From positions 14,915 through 78,914 of IMG/VR virus record IMGVR_UViG_3300009129_001428: a stretch of 64,000 bases of DNA, one strand, 5' to 3'. The stretch comes from a virus (taxonomy: Duplodnaviria > Caudoviricetes). The position numbers and the translations under genes were made by a program. Each line of letters begins with the position of its first letter. Within the stretch, counting starts at the first letter, position 1. The notes beneath the pieces are model-generated. The model was not told the origin of the DNA. It searched no databases and saw nothing but the letters and a program-made list of their open reading frames with translations. Shown in pieces: positions 14,396-54,589 of this stretch.

Positions 14396-14932
14396 TTATC
14401 TAAACTCTTTCCTTAATAATCTCCAGCGGTCAGAATCAATCTCCTTACTGCCACTATCTATAGCATACAGCATTTCGATGATTTCGTCAAGCGAATTATA
14501 AATATATTTATGAGGGAACATTCCGAGCATCCATAACGGAGTCTTTTGCTTGCCGCCCTCCATGCTAACAAACACGGGTTTTTTCATCCGCACCGCTGTT
14601 ACGATTTCTTCAGCACTTCCCCAGCTTGCGACATCAGGAACCAAATGAGCTATAATGAAATCGGAGCGGTCTACTAAATTTAAATCATATGACCTAATTG
14701 TCTTCATTCGCTCAGTAACCCTGTCGTATTGCTTAGTCTTCATCCAAACATCCATTTCTTGGCGAGTAGCCTCGTCCTCTTCTACATCTTTAATAAAAGG
14801 CTTTTTATAAGGATCAAAACACGTAATGTTCAAAGTCCCAAGTTGCTCAGCAACAGAATCCCTCCAATTTCGCCCACTCAAGTATTGCATGTGGCCTACG
14901 AGGTAGGTCTTTGTTTTATTTAGTAAATTCAT
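14396..14932 (-). CDS. nucleoside 2-deoxyribosyltransferase-like protein
   Basis: TYLVGHM, FDPY, DLNLVDRSDFIIA, GSAEEI...KPV. Confidence 0.65.
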   Translation of the reverse strand: MNLLNKTKTYLVGHMQYLSGRNWRDSVAEQLGTLNITCFDPYKKPFIKDVEEDEATRQEMDVWMKTKQYDRVTERMKTIRSYDLNLVDRSDFIIAHLVPDVASWGSAEEIVTAVRMKKPVFVSMEGGKQKTPLWMLGMFPHKYIYNSLDEIIEMLYAIDSGSKEIDSDRWRLLRKEFR

Positions 14933-15334: not shown

Positions 15335-15492
15335 TTGCAGTAATTCGGGTCTTCGGCTCGCTTTCTTCTCATGTACTCCCGTTTTTGTTTGCGCCTACGG
15401 TCTAAATCCGCATCGTCATATTTCTTTCGGGCGCGAGCCTGAGCCTCTTTGCCTTTTTTGCTAGTCAGATATTTTTTTTGCCTTTCGCTCAT
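15322..15492 (-). CDS. small basic hypothetical protein
   Basis: Re-started at MSERQKKY; K/R-rich. Confidence 0.5.
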
Positions 15493-17917
15493 TGGCCTTT
15501 TTTGCCACAATAATATTGTTTTTAACGTAAATCTCAAAATTTTTATCCTTTGACAATAAAAGAGGGGCTAGGGCCTTTTCTATTCTGTCTTCAATTAGCC
15601 TTTTGATGGGCCTTGCTCCATCTTTCTTTTCAAGAGCTTCCTGGCTTAGTAAAGAAAGCGCTTTGGGCATCACCTTTAATTTAATCTCTGATTCAAGCAA
15701 GCGAGCTTTAAGCTTCTCTATCTCAATCCCTAGAATCTGTTTAATATGTTTTTCTTCAAATGTATTAAAAACAATAATCTCATCGAGCCTGTTGATGAAC
15801 TCTGGTTTAAAAAATGACTTTACTTCTTTCATTACTAAGTCTTTAGTGTCGGTACCTGCATCGAGGAAGCCCATGTTTTTCACTCCCTTTGCTGCGCTAG
15901 CTCCAATGTTACCAGTAAGAATAATGATGCAATTTGCAAAACTAGTTTCCCTCCCAAAATTATCAGTCAACTTTCCTTCTTCTAGAATTTGTAGTAACAT
16001 CTGACAGACGCTAGGGTCGGCCTTTTCTATTTCGTCGAATAAAATAACAGAATAAGGATTCTTCTTAACTTTTTCTGTGAGTTGGCCTCCCTCTTCATAG
16101 CCAATATACCCTGGGGAAGCTCCCACCATGCGAGTTGCAGAGATTTTTTCAGAATACTCTGACATGTCTAATTGAATTAGCTTACTGTCTCCCCCAAAGA
16201 CTTCCCGCGCTAAGGTTTTAGCCAAAAAAGTCTTTCCTACCCCACTTGTCCCTAAGCAAAGAAACGCTCCAAAGGGTTTGTTTTTTTGTTTTAAGGGAGT
16301 GTGGCCTCTTAATAGGCAGTTATATACTTTATCTAATACTTCGTCCTGCCCGATAATAATCTTTCTTAGCCGCTTGTTCAGGCTATGAAATCTCTCTTTG
16401 GACGCATTATATAAAGACTGCAGTGGCACTTTAGCCTTTTGTGAAACAGCTTCAAATACAGCATTCTCTTTAACTATTATTTTAGCCAGTTCTTTTTTGT
16501 TCGCCCATTCTATAAGTATCTCTTGATAACTTTCGAATAAATCCTGCTGTTTCTCCTTGATGGCCTCATTATTGGGATTTTCATCCTCCTCCATCATTAG
16601 CACCTCTATCTCCGCCTCAATATCTTTTGCGCTTTGGGGTCGTTGATAATGAAGAATCTTAGTCTTAGCTCCAGCTTGGTCCAGTAGGTCAATGGCCTTG
16701 TCGGGGAAGTTCTTGCCTCCCATGTACTTGTCCGACAGGTTAACGCAGAGTTCTAGCGCTCGGTCGCTATATTTAACCCCATGAAAATCTTCGTAGTGTT
16801 GCTTGATCCCTTTTAATATTTCTAAAGCTTCTTTTTTTGATGGCTCCTCGATTTTAACTGCTTGGAAGCGCCTGTCCAAAGCCCCGTCTTTAGCTATTGT
16901 TTTTTTGTGTTCCTCATGCGTGGTCGCTCCAATACAAACAAGCTCTCCCCTCGCTAGGGCTGGCTTGAACATGTTTGCAGCATCCATAGTGCCCTCTGCG
17001 CTTCCAGCGCCAACAATAGTATGAATTTCATCAATAAATAAAATGACATGGTCTACTTGCGAGACCTCTTTAATGATCTTTTTTAAGCGTTCCTCAAACT
17101 GGCCTCTGTATTTCGTACCCGCTATAAGCATCCCCAGATCTAGCCCATAAATAATTTTATTTAATAAATATTCTGGGGCCTCTCCTTGAACGATTTGTGC
17201 CGCTAAGCCCTCTACTATAGCGGTCTTGCCTACTCCTGGATCTCCAATTAGAATAGGATTGTTTTTCTTTTTCTGGCATAAAATCTCGCAAGTTTCTCTA
17301 ATTTCCTCAGTCCTCCCTACAACTTTATCTATTTTTTTATTAACCACTAATTCATTAAAATTAACAGCAAATTTAGGTAGATACTCTACTCGTGCGCCAG
17401 GCTCAGGCAGGCTCTCTAGGGGATCTTCTCTTGCGCCCATATATGGCGACTCCATTGTTTCTGAATCTAAATCAGAAAAGTGCCTTTTCATTGCGGCGGC
17501 GATAAGCTTGGGGTCAATGCCTGTTTCGACGGCATACACATTGATTGGCGACTCAGTGTACTGGGAGAGCGCTAAAAATAAATGCTCTAGGCCTATGTAC
17601 CCGTGCCCAAGCTTTTCTGCGCAGGCCGCAGCAATGGATAGAGATTGCTTGGCTGAATGAGAAAAAGCGAAAGTATCCGCCTCTTGTTGTGGAAAATTTT
17701 TATTCGCCTCAATTAAAGATAAGACATAAGTCTCTAGCGAACCCTCATCTATTTGAGATTTCTTCAGGATTCTTGCAATCGCTTCTGCTTTTATTGCGAG
17801 TACGCCATAGGCTAAATGATTAATGTCTATAACACTACTAGAGCTTTCTTTTGCTGTCTCTTTTGCTATTTCAATGGCTTCTTGCGCCCGAGGCGTAAAA
17901 TTAGGTACTGTCTCCAT
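15461..17917 (-). CDS. clpC: ClpC/ClpA-type Hsp100 ATP-dependent unfoldase
   Basis: Two N-terminal Clp repeats ([15 protein letters not shown]), NBD1 [14 protein letters not shown], short coiled middle domain, NBD2 [15 protein letters not shown], ClpP-docking loop MGF (15866-15874), [15 protein letters not shown]; start at METVPNF. Confidence 0.88.
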
Positions 17918-17929
17918 ATTGTATGTATT

Positions 17930-17935
17930 TACACT
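17930..17935 (-). promoter_or_regulatory. AGTGTA motif upstream of clpC
   Basis: 12 nt before ATG 17917; one of at least 11 copies. Confidence 0.55.
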
Positions 17936-20513
17936 ATTTAATATCTCCAAGTTTCATGTAGATTTGTTCGTCTATTACTGATATATTATCTAAGAATAAA
18001 ATGTCATCGCCCTTTCTCGCTGTAAAAACGACAATACTATCCTTTTTGGGGAGCTTATTCTTTTCTAAAAAGCGGTCTACCCTATTGTTTTGCTGCCATC
18101 TCCCATTAACCTGGCTTCTCCCATTTAAAAGCAGGCCATCGGTTGTTGCCGTTTCGTCTGAAACCGTAAACCTAATGTAGTCATTGCCATTGCGGCTCCT
18201 GCGTTTAATAACATCCTGCACTACTCCAATAAATTTTCCCCTATCTCTTTCTTCCATCTCTGTAGCATATAATAAATTATTTACATCTGCATCTCTAAAT
18301 ACTTCTGTCAGTTTATATGTATAACTGTAACCTAAAAGCTTTCTCTCAAAATACCAATTAGCGAACTGTTCGTGGCTCTTATTTTGCAAATAAATCTTTT
18401 TATAAGCCCCATACTTCTTCTTGAATGTCCCAAATCTTTTTTCTGGCATTAATATTCTTCCGTCGTCTCCGAGCATCTTTGTCCTCTGTGTTTCTGCTAT
18501 GCAATCAAGTAGTTGGTAGTTTTTCTTTTCTCCCATTTCTACAAAATTACGTTTCTCTCGGTCAGTTAAAATATTAAAAGCCTGCGCTTCTAATACCAGC
18601 AATGACCTGCTCCCGTTCGAACACGAAGACATCGCTCCTGCTTGAATTAAGGCAGACAAGGTTCCTATGTTTAAGCCCGCGCTCTTGGCTGTTAAAAATA
18701 TATCATATTTATTTGACCTCTCAGAATCCCTAAAATCTTTTAAGTTTTGTAATGATTTTTCGCTAATACCTTTTATGCTATTCAGCCCATATCTTATATT
18801 TTTGCCTTCAATAGTAAAATCCATATCGGACTTGATTAAGTCTGGAGGTAAAAGTTTAATGTCAAAATAAGGCAGCTCTTGAGAGATCTTGCATATCTCG
18901 TCATATGGAGAAGGCTCAAACTTGGTCATTTTTAATAATGACTGAAAAAATTGTAATGGATATTTGAACTTTAAATAGGTCGTCCACGCCGCTAAAGTGG
19001 CATATGATATGGAGTGACTTTTATTAAAAGAGTAATTAGCGCTATCCTCTGCTACTTTCCATAGTACCTCTCCAGCCTCATGAGGGAAATTATTTTCTAT
19101 AATCTTTTGTTCGATTTTGCTTTTCCATGTAGACATCTCTTCCACCTTTTTCTTCCCAACAATACGCCTAAGTTGTTCCGCTTCATCGAGGCTGAAGCCA
19201 ACTTTTACCGCCATTTTCATTAATTGCTCTTGATAAAGAGGAATCCCCCCTGTATACGAGAGAATGTCGTCAAAAAATGGATGCACGCTTTGGGACTCTC
19301 CAGTAGAAGCGAATTTTACGAAGCTATCCATAAAGTCTAGTGCTCCTGGCCTTCCGATTGCTACTACTGCGCTCAGCATTTCTAGGTTGTTGGGCTTAAC
19401 TTTCCGACAAACTTTAAAATTTGTATCTGCTTCTATCTGGAAAAGCCCATGCGGGCATCTTAGTCCATCCCTCAAGGGCTTAAAAACCTCCTTCTTCTCA
19501 ACAGAAATAGAGTCTACGTCTAAATCAAGAGTGTTACAGACATCATAGATCACGCTTAAAGTTCTTAAGCCTAATATATCAAATTTAACCATGAGTTCCG
19601 CAACCCAGTTCATGTCGTAGCCGCTAACTAGACCGCCGTCGTTCGTGCTTTGTAGCGGACAAATTTCTTCTAATTTTTGAAATGAAATAGCAATGCCTGA
19701 GGGGTGTACTCCTGTATTCTTATTTAGCCCCTCAAGCTTCTTCGCTACTTTGAAGGTGGCGGGATTATCTGTTACCCAATCCTGAAACTTCTCGCTCTCT
19801 TCGTTTGCTTCGTCGAGGGGCGCAACTTTACCAAATTTTTTAGGAATATAATCGCTCACAATGTTTACGTCTTGTTCCGAGTAGTTCCCCACGATCTTGC
19901 CGCACTCTTTAATGCAAAGTTTGCTGCTTAACGTATTTAGGGTTAAAATATTACAAGTCCTTGCTGGATACCTGCGCTCAATAAAAGAAACTACCTCCTG
20001 CCTGCGCTCATAAGAAATGTCATTGTCGATATCTGCTAGAAGCGACCCGTCAAGATAGGTTACTCCGTCTCCTTCTATTTTTCTTGCCCTGCTTTTGCTT
20101 ACGAATCTTTCGAAATATAAATCATATTTTACTGGATCAATATTAGTGACTTCAATTAAATATAATACCAAAGATCCTGCGGCCGAGCCTCTCCCTGGCC
20201 CCGTAGGGATGTCGTTTTCCCCGCAAAAATTATGTACATCCCAGTTTAATAGTATGTAGTCTACAAAACCGAGGTCATCTAGGATGTCTAGCTCTTGCTT
20301 TGCTCTCTCGTAATAAGACTCTTTGTTTTTAAAATTATTAATACCCCGCTTCTTTATTCCTTCCCAGCAAAGCCTTTTCAAGAAATCAAAGTTAGAAATC
20401 GTAGATTCCACGCCGAGCCTTTCGTAAAACCTGTCTTCTATTTTGATCTCTGGAAGCCTAACGCCAGGAGGGCAAGCGCCTTCATAATGAGTAAAGCCTT
20501 CAAAGAAACTCAT
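17934..20513 (-). CDS. dnaE: DNA polymerase III alpha subunit, catalytic part lacking the PHP domain
   Basis: [63 protein letters not shown]; starts after the usual PHP region. Confidence 0.9.
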
Positions 20514-26751: not shown

Positions 26752-27162
26752 TTATAGTAAAACTCCTATTTTTTTGAAATAATCTTTAGTCAACTCGTCA
26801 ATAGAATATATCTCTATCAAGCGAATGTCATTCAAGTCGCAAAAGGACTGTTTATCTTGGTCTCTGCGCAGTTGGTTTATGTAGTTATATTTATTGTTCC
26901 CGTGAAAAAAGGGAGTATATTCTGTGTGCTGCCTGCCTTGGACCTCTATTGCGATTTTCTTGTTTGCATTATAGAAATCTAAAGACATTTTTGTGCCTGC
27001 GACTGGGAACTCTTCAAAAACTACGTGTTTTTGCCAAAAGTCTTTTAAAAAATCTTTCGTAGCTTTTTGTATCTTGCTTCTGCTCTTTGCCTCCCAGTTG
27101 ATGAGGTATTTCTTCGCCCTTGGGACACTGCGGGTTGCCCCCATCAGGGTTATGAACTTCAT
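26752..27162 (-). CDS. Vsr/DUF559-like endonuclease
   Basis: LDFYNANKKIAIEVQGRQH...RDQDK...LIEI. Confidence 0.75.
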   Translation of the reverse strand: MKFITLMGATRSVPRAKKYLINWEAKSRSKIQKATKDFLKDFWQKHVVFEEFPVAGTKMSLDFYNANKKIAIEVQGRQHTEYTPFFHGNNKYNYINQLRRDQDKQSFCDLNDIRLIEIYSIDELTKDYFKKIGVLL

Positions 27163-28254: not shown

Positions 28255-28596
28255 TTATTCTGATAAGAAATCGCTGATTGTTCTCTCTGTTTTTTTAATA
28301 TTTGCATCTTGTCCTATTTTTTGTTCTTCTAGTTGTGGCGCGGAATACTTTGGCACCACATAGTTATAATCTAAATACTTTTTCTTTACAAACTTTTTCC
28401 AGTTGGGGCTAGCTAATATAGCTAGGCTATCAAACTTTTGATAAAAATCTACAACGCTCCAAAAGCATTGGTCTGGAAATTCCTTGAGGAATCTATTCAG
28501 AAGCGTCATTTCTTTTTTCCAGAAAGCCCTCTTATTGGCTTTTGGTTCATTAATATGCCTCTGTATTATTTGTCTTTTATTTAAGCACTTCTTCAT
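28255..28596 (-). CDS. hypothetical protein
   Basis: Re-started at MKKCLNKRQ (the longer track ORF runs into the tmRNA). Confidence 0.6.
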   Translation of the reverse strand: MKKCLNKRQIIQRHINEPKANKRAFWKKEMTLLNRFLKEFPDQCFWSVVDFYQKFDSLAILASPNWKKFVKKKYLDYNYVVPKYSAPQLEEQKIGQDANIKKTERTISDFLSE

Positions 28597-28676
28597 GTAT
28601 GTCGTCCACTGTCCTCTCGCTTCGTTTTTTATTTTTTTTAGGATATACGATATTCCCGAAAAAGTCAAGAAGGAAA

Positions 28677-29110
28677 TGGTGGAGATGGCGGGAGTCGAAC
28701 CCGCGTCCTTGTATAGATCCATAATCTATCTCGTTACAAGTTTGTCCTGCTTTTTTATGTTGTTGCAAACTCAACATTCAATTTCATTTATTTGCCTCCG
28801 AATACTCAGCGGACTACAGTTTGTGAATATGAATAACTTTTTCTGTTTTCTGCAGATGTCGTCCTCGCATTCCTTTATCTGCGTCCCAGATGCAAGGGGT
28901 AGCTTATGCTACAGCAGCCAGCTGACGCGCAACACTCTTACGAGCAGCAACCTTGCGGGTTGCAACCTTCTTAGAAGGATTGAAGCGGTCAAGCAGACCA
29001 TTTACAAGTTTAGATTTGGCACTTATATAAGCCTTGGGCTTTTTAAGGAGCCAGCCCACTCCTACTTGCAATAAAAAATTTAGCTAACAAGTCGAATCCT
29101 TGTCATCCCC
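28677..29110 (-). ncRNA. ssrA: tmRNA (434 nt)
   Basis: 5' GGGGATGACAAGGATTCGAC; 3' T-arm GCGGGTTCGACTCCCGC then CATCTCCACCA; acceptor stem GGGGATG/CATCTCC with G3.U70 Ala determinant and encoded CCA; internal ATAAGT-GCC resume site and tag ORF. Confidence 0.95.
28904..29020 (-). other. tmRNA tag reading frame, 38 codons: AKSKLVNGLLDRFNPSKKVATRKVAARKSVARQLAAVA*
   Basis: Manual translation from resume codon GCC (29018-29020) to TAA (28904-28906); stop lies in a GTAGC-ATAA-GCTAC hairpin. Confidence 0.8.
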
Positions 29111-29133
29111 ATATCAAATAACTAAAGTTAGTT

Positions 29134-29139
29134 TACACT
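29134..29139 (-). promoter_or_regulatory. AGTGTA motif upstream of the tmRNA
   Basis: 23 nt upstream of the mature 5' end. Confidence 0.5.
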
Positions 29140-29141
29140 AA

Positions 29142-30065
29142 TCACTTAGCTTTGTCAAGCTTGCGTTCTGTTTTAATTAGAAAAGGATACTTGCTCACTT
29201 CTGTGCCCCCGCCCTCTCCCGCGTCGCTGATCCCGCTTTTAATTCCACTATCTTCTACCGCAATCTTTTTAAGGTTCTTTAGGGAGGGCGCTTCAATATT
29301 AGGGTCAATAGCCCATAGTACATCGTTTTCTTTCGCCCAGCGCTTCATCCGCCGAATTGGAACTGTTAAATTAAAACCTTCTCCTGCTCCGCGCACAAGC
29401 ATACCCACATAGCGGCCGTCTGTAAGAAAAACCCCGCCTCCTGAGGAGCCTGGGAATGCGGTCACTGTAGTTTGGTCGTACTCTTGCTTGCCATGAATCC
29501 TGCCGACTTGCGACACAATGCCCGTGGTCATAGAGTTCGCTCCCATCTGGCCCAATAAAGACCCTACATGGAAAAGGCTTGTGCCAATAGGGACAATAGC
29601 ATCGTCTGCATTAAGATAAAATCGCGCGCTTTCCTTAGAGTAGTCCTTGGCTCGTACCATAAGCAATGCAAGATCATGGCCGTCATCAGCATTAGAATAT
29701 TTAATAACCATTGCATCCATTTTGATTTCGCCCACACGCCTTCCTTCAGAGACAAGTTCCTTTACTATCTGTGCGTCCTGAAACTCTACTACTTTACGAG
29801 GGCGCCCGCTCTCGTCAATTACATCTCGTACAGTTCGAAGGTTATCGACTACATGGGCCGCCGTCCACACAAAAGTGACCTCGCTCCCCTCGATTTCTCT
29901 AACGATCAACACCCCTGACCCCTCGGACTTGCTCCACTTCCCTTCGGATTTAATAGTAACCGAAATGTCCTGAAGAAAATTGGCAACACGCTTTCTGTTC
30001 TTCAAGTCTTCTGAAAAGGTGGGGGTTGCAACTAAAAATGCCAAGAATAATGTAATGTACTTCAT
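29142..30065 (-). CDS. secreted trypsin-like serine protease
   Basis: Signal peptide; catalytic triad WTAAHVV / HDLALL / PGSSGGGV. Confidence 0.88.
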   Translation of the reverse strand: MKYITLFLAFLVATPTFSEDLKNRKRVANFLQDISVTIKSEGKWSKSEGSGVLIVREIEGSEVTFVWTAAHVVDNLRTVRDVIDESGRPRKVVEFQDAQIVKELVSEGRRVGEIKMDAMVIKYSNADDGHDLALLMVRAKDYSKESARFYLNADDAIVPIGTSLFHVGSLLGQMGANSMTTGIVSQVGRIHGKQEYDQTTVTAFPGSSGGGVFLTDGRYVGMLVRGAGEGFNLTVPIRRMKRWAKENDVLWAIDPNIEAPSLKNLKKIAVEDSGIKSGISDAGEGGGTEVSKYPFLIKTERKLDKAK

Positions 30066-45021: not shown

Positions 45022-45518
45022 TAAACAAGATATAAATTTGATACATAAAAATGAGGTTTATTTACTCCAATCAGTTTAATTAATCTAGCTTTCGTCTCGT
45101 CAAATTCAGTATTATAAAAAGCCTTTAAAGGGATAGCTACCTCGCATTCTTCTCCTGATGTAATTCCACTAAGCTGAGAAATTTCCACTTCCTCCGAAGT
45201 CCTTTCTTTTTCATCTATAAAAGCCACCCTTAAGCCTACACCATCTTCCTGGTAGAAAGTAAACTTTACCTCGGAATACTGCCTAATGTCCTGAGAGGCC
45301 CACTGGGCTTTATCTAGGGCTAAGACCCCGCAAAACCAATCGTCTTCCGACTCTGTATACTTGAGTGCGAGTCGAGGTACTCCAGCTATGTTCTCCACGG
45401 GGACCTTTTCTGGCTCACTTGTCTCTAAATTACAAGACCAGCTTGCATCTACTACTTTCTTTAGGAACACCCTAGGAGAAAAGATGTTTAACATTTTAGT
45501 TTTATTTGAAATTAACAT
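45021..45518 (-). CDS. galactose-binding-like (CBM11/CIA30-like) domain protein
   Basis: DIRQYSEVKF.F....LRVAFID......VAIPLKAF....FD..KAR.I pattern. Confidence 0.45.
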   Translation of the reverse strand: MLISNKTKMLNIFSPRVFLKKVVDASWSCNLETSEPEKVPVENIAGVPRLALKYTESEDDWFCGVLALDKAQWASQDIRQYSEVKFTFYQEDGVGLRVAFIDEKERTSEEVEISQLSGITSGEECEVAIPLKAFYNTEFDETKARLIKLIGVNKPHFYVSNLYLV

Positions 45519-46927
45519 AGCTCTAATAATCCGTCGTCATTTATGTACGATATTTTTGTAATATTTTTATGTTTATGTTTGTTCGTTGAGAAATAATCAA
45601 AAGGCTCAAGTCCTTCCGACCGATACGTTTCTCCTTTATAATCGTTCTTGTTTAGGCTTTTTAAAGAAATAAATTTAATTTTTTCAAAGCCATTTAGAAG
45701 ATGCATGCCAATGTTTTTTAACGTCAACTCTTGGTCTAGTCTTTGGGTTTTATTTCCTTTATGCATTATTGGATAATAATTACAATCAAATAAATCCTCT
45801 CTGATCTGCTTGTTGCTTTTTACTAAATCTATAATTGCAATATCACAATCCATGTGCCTATCTATAAAATGAGCAAGCTTTTTTATATTAAATTTAGATC
45901 CTGTGTCATTGTAAATAATTACTCCAGTTTTCTTTTCTACAGATAGTAGGTTTATATCGGTTAGGCCGTTAGCTTTAGCCTCCGAAAATAAACTTTGGTT
46001 ATACTGGCCTCCTATTGTTAAGCTATTTATATCCCACTCCTTCGGGTGATCAATATGATAAACATCCTTTATGTTTTCGGTAGTCGTATGCAGTTTCTGG
46101 CAAATGCCTGAAAGAGCTGTGTCCCAATGGGGCTCACCTATAATAAAATCAGGAATATATTCTCTAATGCTCAGGTATGTTTTCTTTTTAAACGCAAATG
46201 CATCTCTGCCTGTGGTATAAGGCCATGACTCCCCCTTAAATAAATCCTCTAATGATTTGGCAGAGGGACAATCTCTCCTGATGTACTCTACTATGTCTGA
46301 GTTGTCTTCTAGTAGGTTGTTATAAAAATCATTAGTTATGGGGCAATCTAGATTAGAATATACAATATAATCACTGTCTGAGGCGAGCTCTGCTGCGGCG
46401 TCCAACATGTCCTTGAGAAATAAAAAGTCTTTAGTATGCTGGATTGTATTGGCCGCATTCCGAATTAGTATTCTAGTCTTCCATCCAGGCTTTTTAAGGG
46501 CTACGCTTGAACATCCCAAAAGCTGCACGCAACTGGATGACTTGGCCGCCTGCTCTATGGACTCAAGCGTTAAAGAGGTCCTGTGGTATAGTGACTGGTT
46601 TTTTTGGGCTGGAATAAATAAATTAACTACATGAATAATTTTAGAAGCCTTTTTAGAAGAAGAATCTATCTTGAGGCTGGGCGGAGCGACGTCATCACGA
46701 GGGATTTCTAGTTTGTGGCTGCGTTTTGCAGTAGCGCTCACCTCATCTTCAGAATAATTCAATTTCTTGCCAGTGGATATGGCAACCCCTTGAATTTTCG
46801 AGCGAAGAACTTTGTCTCTATTGATGATGGTCTCATCAATAATGTTATTTATATTAAAAAGGAAGCTATGCCACCAGTAAGCCGCCGCATTTAAAATGCG
46901 CGATACGAACCTCCTCGCTGCCCGCAT
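45512..46927 (-). CDS. glycosyltransferase-like protein
   Basis: YIVYSNLD, GRDAFAF, IGEPHWD, YHIDH; lies in the glycan island. Confidence 0.5.
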   Translation of the reverse strand: MRAARRFVSRILNAAAYWWHSFLFNINNIIDETIINRDKVLRSKIQGVAISTGKKLNYSEDEVSATAKRSHKLEIPRDDVAPPSLKIDSSSKKASKIIHVVNLFIPAQKNQSLYHRTSLTLESIEQAAKSSSCVQLLGCSSVALKKPGWKTRILIRNAANTIQHTKDFLFLKDMLDAAAELASDSDYIVYSNLDCPITNDFYNNLLEDNSDIVEYIRRDCPSAKSLEDLFKGESWPYTTGRDAFAFKKKTYLSIREYIPDFIIGEPHWDTALSGICQKLHTTTENIKDVYHIDHPKEWDINSLTIGGQYNQSLFSEAKANGLTDINLLSVEKKTGVIIYNDTGSKFNIKKLAHFIDRHMDCDIAIIDLVKSNKQIREDLFDCNYYPIMHKGNKTQRLDQELTLKNIGMHLLNGFEKIKFISLKSLNKNDYKGETYRSEGLEPFDYFSTNKHKHKNITKISYINDDGLLELC

Positions 46928-46929
46928 TA

Positions 46930-47628
46930 TTATAGCTCCCCTCTGATTTCATCAATCAGGCCAAGGTTGAGCGCCTCATCCGAAGAAATCCACCAATCTT
47001 TTCTATCCCAATTTCTTTTTATCTTAAGCCTGGTTAGGTTAGATCTTTTTTCAAAAATATCTAGAATGCGAGCTTCTATCCTCTTTATCCACGCAGTATG
47101 ATCCTCAATTTCAAATGTCTTACCCATGATCCCAAAGGCAGCTCTATGGATCATCATCCATGCTTGATGACCCATCCATCGGCGGTCGCCTGCCTGCAGG
47201 AGTATCCCTGCCATAGAAGCCGCCATTCCTAGTGAACCCGTAGTTACTTTATGCCCTCGGGCCCGCAGCTCCTGTATAAAATCAAACAAAACAAACCCAT
47301 CAACAATGGAGCCTCCGCCTGACGAAAAAATAATTTCTATCTCGCAATTTGGGTGCCTCCTTGACCACTGTGTAAGTTTTTGCATGCAATCATTAACATA
47401 GGTTTTGTCTACTACAGTATTAAACCTATAAATCATATTCTCTTTGTCGTCAGCCTTTTCCCTCCTCCATTCCTGGTCCTTTTTCTCTGCTTCAAGATTT
47501 TTTAATTTGGCAGAGCTCTCGGCGCTAAGTGTTTCTGCCTCTAGCTTTCGGATCTCCGCTTCGATTTTACGAGTTTCTGCTTCGATTTTACGAAGTTCTT
47601 CTTTGCTTTTTTTCTTTTCTTCGCCCAT
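46930..47628 (-). CDS. clpP: ClpP-family serine protease with N-terminal heptad-repeat extension
   Basis: IFSSGGGSIVDG, catalytic Ser in AASMAG, His in MMIH, Asp in RKDWWISSDEA, GLIDEI. Confidence 0.88.
   Translation of the reverse strand: MGEEKKKSKEELRKIEAETRKIEAEIRKLEAETLSAESSAKLKNLEAEKKDQEWRREKADDKENMIYRFNTVVDKTYVNDCMQKLTQWSRRHPNCEIEIIFSSGGGSIVDGFVLFDFIQELRARGHKVTTGSLGMAASMAGILLQAGDRRWMGHQAWMMIHRAAFGIMGKTFEIEDHTAWIKRIEARILDIFEKRSNLTRLKIKRNWDRKDWWISSDEALNLGLIDEIRGEL
47532..47594. repeat. 21-bp tandem repeat encoding RKIEAET-RKIEAEI-RKLEAET
   Basis: ttcgattttacg recurs at a 21-nt period within clpP. Confidence 0.7.
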
Positions 47629-53308: not shown

Positions 53309-54589
53309 TTATAGCAACTCTTTAATTACAACCCCCTCTCCTAAGATTGGTATAGGCCTTCCGCTGTGGTCGTAATAATGATGCTTCGTATTAATGCCTA
53401 AATGTTCATAGGCTGTAGCCAACACGTCCGCAGGCCTTATACCTGCCCCTTCAGGCAGGCTACCCGTCTTATCGCTTGATCCTGCTACTCTGCCTCCTTG
53501 AACGGGGCCGCCTGCAATCGCTGCAGACATTACATTGGACCAATGATCTCTGCCTCCATTGCTATTTATTTTCGGAGTCCTCCCGAATTCTCCCCAAGCT
53601 ATTACCATTACATCTTCCATCATTCCTTGTGCGTATAAATCATTTATTAATGCGCTAAATCCTATGTCAAACTGCGGTAAGTTTTTGGCGCCGTTAGTCT
53701 TGTCGCTGTTCTGATGAGTGTCCCATCCGAAGGGAGTATTAACAGTAACTAATTTAACTCCCGCTTTAACCAGCCTTCTTGCTAGTAATAAATCCCTCCC
53801 AAATCCAGGGCCGTACATGTCTTTGATAAATTGCGACTCATCATTTATATCGAATGCTTTTGATGCTTGGCCAGAAGATAATACATCATATGCTTTCAGA
53901 TTAAATTCATTCATGGCTTCTATTGACTTGCTGCGATCAATCTCTGCCTTCATGGTGTCCATGGATTTTAATAGATCATTTCTATTATCTAACCTACGAA
54001 CAGTTAAGCTATCATTTAATGTAAAATTATCATCTTTATATAATGGATTATTGGATGCTCGTCTCCTAGTTTGGTATGGCATATACTGTTGGCCTAAATA
54101 AGCGGCCCTTGTACCTCTGTTGTGGGTTGGTATTACCACATAAGGAGGCACCTTTAACCCTAACGCCCTCGATCTCTCAGCCGCCACAGATCCAATACTT
54201 GGGTAGAAGTTCTCTTGCTGATTAGGTTGCGCAGGCTTATAGCCTGAGTACATAAATTCATGAGCTGCAGAATGATTATTGCTTCCGTGGTATAATCCTC
54301 TTACAATAGACCATTGATCCATAAGGGCCGCGCTTTTGTTTAGATGGTCTGAGATTTGAACGCCTGGGACTTTAGTAGAAATTGCGTCAAAGTGGCCTTT
54401 ATATTCGCTTGAGGCCTCAGGTTTCGGATCAAATGTCTCGTGATGACTAGGACCACCATTCATCCAAATAATAATAACAGATTTATTATTCTTAATAGAA
54501 CCAACCTCTTGGGCCGCTAAGAGTTCGGGTAATGATAAGGAGCCTAGTCCTGCTAAGGCCCCAACTTTTAAAAAATGTTGCCTATTCAT
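53309..54589 (-). CDS. DUF1501 family protein (Tat-like signal)
   Basis: NRQHFLK, SVIIIWMNGGPSHHETFDPKP, GWDTH, WGEFGRTP, GRDHW, PADVLAT...LGI. Confidence 0.88.
   Translation of the reverse strand: MNRQHFLKVGALAGLGSLSLPELLAAQEVGSIKNNKSVIIIWMNGGPSHHETFDPKPEASSEYKGHFDAISTKVPGVQISDHLNKSAALMDQWSIVRGLYHGSNNHSAAHEFMYSGYKPAQPNQQENFYPSIGSVAAERSRALGLKVPPYVVIPTHNRGTRAAYLGQQYMPYQTRRRASNNPLYKDDNFTLNDSLTVRRLDNRNDLLKSMDTMKAEIDRSKSIEAMNEFNLKAYDVLSSGQASKAFDINDESQFIKDMYGPGFGRDLLLARRLVKAGVKLVTVNTPFGWDTHQNSDKTNGAKNLPQFDIGFSALINDLYAQGMMEDVMVIAWGEFGRTPKINSNGGRDHWSNVMSAAIAGGPVQGGRVAGSSDKTGSLPEGAGIRPADVLATAYEHLGINTKHHYYDHSGRPIPILGEGVVIKELL

Follow-up and report, generated by a model that had tools for sequence, protein, structure and literature searches.

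The stretch of phage DNA analyzed here (the window, 64,000 nt; positions 14,915 to 78,914 of IMG/VR record IMGVR_UViG_3300009129_001428) contains a complete one-piece tmRNA gene. Its tag reading frame is predicted to specify a basic peptide of 38 residues, and this sequence observation is well supported. We consider it probable that the gene gives a functional phage tmRNA, and that its 38-residue basic tag combines a degron end with a binding module for a differing partner. The tag sequence decides the fate of every protein rescued from a ribosome; phage tmRNAs are known, and their tags have hardly been studied.

The tmRNA (ssrA) gene occupies positions 28677–29110 on the minus strand and is 434 nt long. 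Rfam and ARAGORN agree on this same gene. The RF00023 covariance model aligns with it over the full model (1–374), with a score of 116.7 bits (threshold 47) and an E value of 6.5e-45. The acceptor stem, GGGGAUG/CAUCUCC, contains the G3:U70 pair and is followed by ACCA, as expected of a tRNA-Ala-like domain, and the T-arm reads GCGGGUUCGACUCCCGC. In one relative (L005), positions 5–6 of the acceptor stem and the T stem carry compensatory changes. The pseudoknot 1 region (PK1; tmRNA nt 42–75, positions 29036–29069, minus strand), located by alignment to PK1 of the Rfam model, is nearly invariant across the 10 variants compared. A sigma-70-like promoter element, TTGACA-17-TAAACT (29130–29158, minus strand), ends 20 nt upstream of the mature tmRNA 5' end; it agrees with the consensus at 10 of 12 positions, which is a consensus match only and not functional proof.

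Homologous tmRNAs are present on nine other contigs, with Rfam scores of 105–115 bits and identities down to about 73%. These relatives came from a neighbor-gene search, two IMG/VR DNA patterns and one metagenome scan. A degenerate NGLLDRFNP pattern used on metagenomes was too loose, with a tmRNA in 9 of the 120 returned loci, and a match to the basic-repeat pattern (L045) was rejected as an unrelated high-GC coding repeat. The relatives of the window are IMG/VR viral contigs. The window itself encodes a split DnaE, DnaB, a primase, RecA, both ribonucleotide reductase subunits, a dUTPase and many glycosyltransferases. From the CheckV completeness of related contigs, we infer a marine phage with a genome of roughly 130–150 kb. 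The best genome matches of a DUF1501 protein of the window are in Puniceicoccaceae and other Verrucomicrobia MAGs (47% identity), followed by Planctomycetota; they were obtained with an alignment as the query, and the protein alone as the query gave no match to a genome contig. The identity of this protein, together with the host-like tag of a sister phage described below, suggests that the hosts are likely Verrucomicrobiota or members of another PVC phylum.

The position at which the tag would begin is indicated by several features. The Rfam consensus resume codon aligns with the GCC at 29020–29018 (minus strand), which is nt 91 of the tmRNA. Translation from 29020 to 28904 gives AKSKLVNGLLDRFNPSKKVATRKVAARKSVARQLAAVA, 38 residues followed by UAA; it is identical to the frame that the preliminary description had read from ATAAGT followed by GCC. 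The 38 sense codons (AKSK...LAAVA) cover positions 28907–29020 on the minus strand. The frame-setting sequence AUAAGU (29021–29026, minus strand), with U at −5 and A at −4, is invariant in the 10 variants. In E. coli, the frame is set chiefly by A86, four bases before the resume codon (the U85/A86 rule; PMC2481249), and the AUAAGU of the phage tmRNA fits this rule. Bacterial tmRNAs have a like context: AUAAGU precedes GCC in L164, whose short tag is unambiguous, and UAAGU precedes GCC in L170. Among 55 other tmRNAs sampled, the resume codons lie at nt 90–106, compared with nt 91 here. The start of the tag, A-K/N-S/N-K, matches the canonical AN/AK of bacterial tags. Rfam returned the resume codon that the preliminary description wished to have confirmed with either program, whereas the ARAGORN tag call was an internal ORF. 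The latter tag (ECEDD...IEC, gene positions 239–340) was rejected, because the pseudoknot region contains it and the L002 counterpart differs in length and ending.

The other end of the frame can be placed in a similar manner. The UAA stop (28904–28906, minus strand), assigned from the sequence and its translation, is replaced by UGA at the same place in L225. It lies within the loop of a hairpin, GUAGC-AUAA-GCUAC (28899–28912, minus strand), which is predicted by the minimum-free-energy fold and supported by covariation. Relatives carry changes on both sides of two of the five pairs (GCAGC/GCUGC and GCAGU/ACUGC), with no pair broken. The stop codon of a tmRNA usually lies in the loop of helix 5 (PMC1168896), and the 4-base loop AUAA of the phage RNA conforms to it. 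From these features we infer the resume and stop positions given above. The Rfam alignment instead assigns helix 5, at low posterior, to a mid-ORF site whose UAA is out of frame; we preferred the covarying hairpin at the true stop and regard the mid-ORF placement as an artefact, because the inserted codons are misaligned by the model. The conservation of codons 36–38 is partly due to the helix 5 hairpin and not to the peptide.

The tag frame is conserved as a coding sequence. The frame is exactly 38 sense codons long in each of the 10 distinct variants, and none of them has an indel or an internal stop in it; many indels are found in the remaining RNA and none within the tag frame. The variable columns are distributed over the three codon positions as 11/11/23 (binomial p = 0.01), a figure based on 45 columns of related sequences that do not represent independent events. 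The replacements observed among the variants are V/I, K/R, S/A/T and A/V. Taken together, these comparisons indicate that the tag peptide is under purifying selection.

The peptide is strongly basic. It contains 10 basic residues (6 K and 4 R), one more than the 9 counted in the preliminary description, and Asp11 is, as stated there, the sole acidic residue. The net charge is +9, and it ranges from +6 to +9 over the variants. Seven of the 10 K/R residues fall within residues 17–32. Residues 4–15, KL[V/I]NGLLDRFNP (28976–29011, minus strand), form a conserved core in which 11 of 12 residues are invariant. Within it, only residue 6 varies among the 10 variants (V/I), and codons 9 and 11–14 vary synonymously. 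The core is followed by three tandem 15-nt units (28925–28969, minus strand), which encode KVATR-KVAAR-KSVAR at residues 18–32 and read AAGGTTGCAACCCGC, AAGGTTGCTGCTCGT and AAGAGTGTTGCGCGT at the DNA level. The 5-residue repeat had been noticed earlier, and a shuffle test at lag 15 upholds it: 22 of 30 positions match, a score reached by none of 20000 codon shuffles. Tandem Repeats Finder reported no repeat in the locus at a score of at least 30. In view of the lag-15 score, the basic part most likely arose by tandem duplication. The ends of the tag differ among the variants (LAAVA, LAVAA, VAVAA, VAVAV and LTAVA) and are always small and hydrophobic. Ends such as LAAVA and AVAA are Ala/Val-rich and agree with the hydrophobic, Ala-rich C-terminus described for tmRNA tags.

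The published range of tmRNA tag lengths is 8–35 residues, according to a 2021 review (PMC8012679). The phage tag, with 38 residues, exceeds this range, which is a description and not a family requirement. We found a full tmRNA in 137 of 151 Verrucomicrobiota genomes, with lengths of about 345–404 nt by Rfam coordinates, and the 434-nt phage tmRNA is longer than all 137 of them (maximum about 404 nt). Of the 54 tags that we read, 53 were of Verrucomicrobiota, a sample deliberately chosen to take in the longest and the lowest-scoring genes; the other was of a Planctomycetaceae MAG. These tags have 8–20 residues (median 9), with charges between −4 and +1, and the majority belong to the ANxE[LYF]ALAA type. 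None of the 54 resembles the 38-residue basic tag, which is about four times as long as a host-type tag and of opposite charge. The view that the long basic tag is unusual therefore stands, since it lies outside both the published range and these host-phylum tags. Two circumstances that could have overturned it do not apply: the resume codon supported above does not lie near the 3' end of the RNA, where it would give a short tag, and the tags of Verrucomicrobiota, at 8–20 residues, are not of a long basic kind.

In its architecture, the phage RNA resembles bacterial one-piece tmRNAs, such as those encoding ANDENYALAA in E. coli or tags of the ANEELALAA type in Verrucomicrobiota. It shares with them the G3:U70 pair, the ACCA end, PK1, the U-A at −5/−4, a GCN resume codon, the stop in helix 5, the downstream pseudoknots and the Ala/Val-rich tag end. 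It differs in its 38 codons and +9 charge, compared with 8–20 codons and −4 to +1 in the 54 host-phylum genes, and it lies on a phage contig in which no smpB was found among the ORFs scanned. Most host-phylum tmRNAs score 130–199 bits with Rfam, compared with 116.7 bits for the phage tmRNA; the lower score is due to the inserted codons, which the model misaligns.

A still more informative comparison is with the sister phage G161 (IMGVR_UViG_3300020442_000008, 128.6 kb, 95% complete). It belongs to the same phage group; its RecA is 70% identical and its ClpC-like protein 46% identical to those of the window. The G161 tmRNA aligns with that of the window outside the ORF, including AUAAGU followed by GCU AAA and segments downstream of the tag, and is found at a different place in the genome. 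It has 358 nt and encodes a 19-residue, acidic, host-like tag, AKNINSVEPFVSEELALAA, which ends in ELALAA. Since this homologous tmRNA carries a host-like tag, the long basic tag is an innovation within a phage tmRNA lineage. The two RNAs provide a clean natural comparison, in which homologous tmRNAs of related phages carry a 19-residue acidic tag and a 38-residue tag of charge +9. The comparison also bears on the earlier suggestion that about 84 extra nt in the tag explain the length of the RNA. This figure holds against the 10 codons of E. coli; against the G161 tmRNA with its 19 codons, the phage RNA is longer by 76 nt, of which 57 belong to the tag.

Phages that carry ssrA are known (PMC4131195, PMC7162821). 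The described phage tmRNAs include those of the mycobacteriophage Bxz1 group, Bacillus phage G, Streptomyces phages and huge phages, and for Streptomyces phages, annotated records list tags such as ANSKFAFALAA. When the present tmRNA was compared with 50,697 phage records, matches were confined to about 31 nt at the conserved 3' end, and a tblastn search of the same records with the tag gave no matches. None of the papers searched described a long basic phage tmRNA tag.

We propose that the tmRNA would be transcribed from its own promoter and charged by host AlaRS, which the G3:U70 pair and the ACCA end permit. It would then act together with host SmpB and EF-Tu. SmpB (PF01668) was absent from the scanned ORFs of the window, from five related fragments and from the 95%-complete G161; the phage tmRNA therefore presumably uses host SmpB, and EF-Tu would likewise be supplied by the host. 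On a stalled ribosome, translation would resume at GCC, four bases past the conserved A of AUAAGU, and 38 codons would be read before the UAA in the helix 5 loop ends the tag. Rescued proteins would thus be extended by an alanine and the 38 encoded residues, at a net charge near +9.

The tag itself can be viewed as three parts: the A-K/N start, the core with the three K-x-x-x-R repeats, and the Ala/Val-rich end. The end (LAAVA, AVAA, VAVA) may act as a degron of the type recognized by AAA+ proteases, in which case the products would still be sent to proteolysis. The core and the basic repeats may constitute a binding module, whose partner would differ from the reader of the short acidic host tags and could be an adaptor or an unfoldase of either phage or host origin. 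The module would then follow the same logic as the segment of the E. coli tag that binds SspB. We hold this reading of the tag, degron end and binding module together, with moderate confidence. Since related phages keep the tag as a peptide, the fate of rescued proteins in infected cells is probably altered. Knowledge of the tag reader would reveal whether phages divert protein quality control in infection, and the tag could yield an orthogonal degradation or affinity tag.

A more specific form of the binding-module proposal is that the tag serves as a private address label, in which the NGLLDRFNP core and the K-x-x-x-R repeats recruit a partner chosen by the phage, for example its own ClpC-type unfoldase docked on host ClpP. 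We put this forward tentatively, as a possibility. If it were true, the stalled products of host and phage translation would be routed, degraded or sequestered beyond the control of the host tag readers. The window encodes a candidate for such a partner, a ClpC-type AAA+ unfoldase (15461–17950, minus strand) with the Pfam domains Clp_N, AAA, AAA_lid_9, AAA_2 and ClpB_D2-small. Among solved proteins, B. subtilis ClpC is the best match, aligning in one stretch with 596 bits, and the MGF of the phage protein aligns to the VGF of the ClpP-docking loop of ClpC. The N-domain, D1, a short M-domain, D2 and the docking loop of the ClpC type are all present, and the protein scores below all NCBIfam equivalog cut-offs. 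Possession of the ClpC-like gene does not follow the type of tag, because the phage with the host-like tag, G161, has it as well. A predicted complex of the tag with the N-domain of the ClpC-like protein (residues 1–165) gave a score of 0.00, which speaks neither for nor against binding.

The preliminary description had raised the possibility of a phage ClpCP that receives the tagged products. The ATPase part of this suggestion is in agreement with the ClpC-type gene described above, although that gene is not tied to the tag type; the protease part is not sustained. The ORF considered as a phage ClpP encodes a ClpP-fold protease (46930–47628, minus strand; Pfam CLP_protease, 99 bits) that is likely a head-maturation protease. 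It matches the PHROG family 94, "head maturation protease", with 178 bits, compared with 46 bits for an ATP-dependent protease family. Against the NCBIfam ClpP models it scored 72–87 bits, where the cut-offs are 228–361, and failed all of them. The ORF is 77% identical to copies in G001 and G002. As it is most likely a prohead protease, we rejected it as a partner of the tag. We also rejected, as a K/R-specific tag reader, the trypsin-like serine peptidase encoded directly upstream of the tmRNA (29142–30065, minus strand; Pfam Trypsin_2). Its N-terminus, MKYITLFLAFLVATPTFSE, resembles a signal peptide as judged by eye, and two clades with the tmRNA, L005/L006 and L037/L042, lack the gene; we consider it a neighbor without a link to the tmRNA. 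The other functional suggestions of the preliminary description, escape from host adaptors and a nucleic-acid-binding tail, are speculative.

The basic nature of the peptide allows a different interpretation, in which the tmRNA rescues ribosomes and adds no degradation signal. With the basic tail, the products might attach to nucleic acid or membranes, become sequestered, or be shielded from host proteases, or else the frame would serve only as RNA or as a spacer. The +9 charge and the K-x-x-x-R repeat are indeed unlike the 54 tags that we read and those described in the literature consulted (PMC8012679), and the tag ends (LAAVA, AVAA, VAVA and AVAV) vary more than the core. Rescue of this kind would also agree with a review report that what is essential in trans-translation is the release of ribosomes rather than proteolysis (PMC8012679). 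However, every variant retains a small hydrophobic end, which is a common feature of tmRNA degrons. The Caulobacter tag likewise ends in AVAA, as do some of the variants. Because the peptide is under purifying selection, the frame is unlikely to serve purely as RNA or as a spacer. Binding to nucleic acid is disfavored by a Pfam search with the tag, in which no family, and in particular none that is histone-like or DNA-binding, was matched at E ≤ 10; the earlier comparison with the chlamydial histone-like protein Hc2 thus found no support. An Atlas search with the tag returned nothing above 0.78. On balance, we consider rescue in the absence of a degradation signal to be unlikely.

Another question is whether the tag could start later than proposed. 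If translation resumed at the GGU at tmRNA nt 112 (28999–28997), after UAAAU, a 31-residue tag, GLLDRFNP...LAAVA, would result; it would still be long and basic, and it would lie within the published range. ARAGORN selects this GGU in L005 and L006, where it finds the correct frame but starts at the later codon and gives 31 residues. In the window, UAAAU fits the U-A-purine-N-pyrimidine pattern, and only three of the seven codons upstream of the GGU vary, so the coding signal is thin in this segment. However, the site reads UUAAU in L290, L225 and L267, with loss of the essential A at −4, whereas the AUAAGU before GCC is retained in 10 of 10 variants. The Rfam consensus resume codon falls on GCC and not on this GGU, nt 112 lies outside the nt 90–106 interval of the 55 other tmRNAs, and the AN/AK-like start of bacterial tags would be lost from the peptide. 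The later start is therefore improbable.

It is hardly credible that the gene is a decaying or non-tagging copy with an incidental frame, titrating host SmpB in the way of the tRNA-like-domain-only element of mycobacteriophage DS6A: remnants of that kind have been described in phages (PMC4131195) and the 116.7 bits fall below the 130–199 of most host-phylum tmRNAs, but no domain of the full Rfam model is missing, compensatory changes among the variants occur in the acceptor and T stems, helix 5 covaries, the frame keeps its exact length, its third-position bias and its invariant core, and the low score is explained by the inserted, misaligned codons.

Sequences from RNA libraries bear on the expression of the tmRNA. 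Contigs from the RNA libraries of four marine studies contain the tmRNA family together with the tag frame, at about 88–99% identity, and their indels lie only outside the tag frame. These contigs are compatible with expression of the tmRNA, although assembled contigs cannot prove transcription or map ends. In four RNA runs, the flanks of the tmRNA at 28300–28627 and 29120–29365 were not covered. The RNA contigs of the four studies end near 29101–29102, one of them with adapter sequence as a loose end. The contig ends and the uncovered flanks give at most a weak hint of a discrete RNA and are not evidence for where it begins or ends.

Two open reading frames lie across the tmRNA gene, one encoding 196 aa (28484-29074, plus strand) and the other 155 aa (28255-28722, minus strand). 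Both are almost certainly spurious, and automatic annotation could mistakenly call them as genes. In the homologous tmRNA of the related phage contig L037 (5171-5606 of that contig, minus strand), the encoded CCA end is changed, the terminal sequence being ...CTCCAACA where ...CTCCACCA is expected. This reflects either a sequencing error or an end that relies on repair by the CCA-adding enzyme.

Beside the tmRNA lies a gene for a trypsin/HtrA-like serine peptidase (29142-30065, minus strand), the N-terminus of which resembles a signal peptide as judged by eye. The gene is an insertion separating the tmRNA from a conserved 544-aa gene, and it is limited to the closest sub-clade of the window (contigs L002, L003, L004, and L044).

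Among the bacterial tags read, the longest, at 20 residues, belong to two Verrucomicrobiota genomes (L161 and L162) that are also the smallest sampled, at ~0.9 Mb each. Their tag, ANYRNQP...VALLG, ends in LLG rather than LAA, and their tmRNAs measure 392-401 nt.

The phage ClpC-type AAA+ ATPase (15461-17950, minus strand) carries MGF at the position of the ClpP-docking loop. Its N-domain and linker are acidic, with 20 D/E versus 13 K/R within residues 1-160. Homologues occur in the related phage contig G001 (58% identical) and the sister phage contig G161 (46% identical), and further ones are found on metagenome contigs of up to 196 kb.

The 136-aa ORF immediately following RecA (26752-27162, minus strand) matches HNH and homing-endonuclease PHROGs. 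Nearly all 36 RecA relatives keep this ORF in the same position, with 57-80% identity, so it seems to be a fixed partner and not a mobile endonuclease.

The ClpP-fold head-maturation protease (46930-47628, minus strand) has an N-terminal extension of 68 residues. Directly downstream of its gene, a 471-aa ORF (45512-46927, minus strand) without a family match in Pfam or PHROG could be a scaffold or capsid protein; if so, structural genes would be located among the glycosyltransferases of the window.

For the phage DUF1501 protein (53309-54589, minus strand), metagenome contigs of 83-187 kb encode relatives at ~64% identity, a group that may represent additional phages with this host-like surface-protein module. 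Bacterial relatives, from Puniceicoccaceae, other Verrucomicrobia, and Planctomycetota, reach only ~47% identity.
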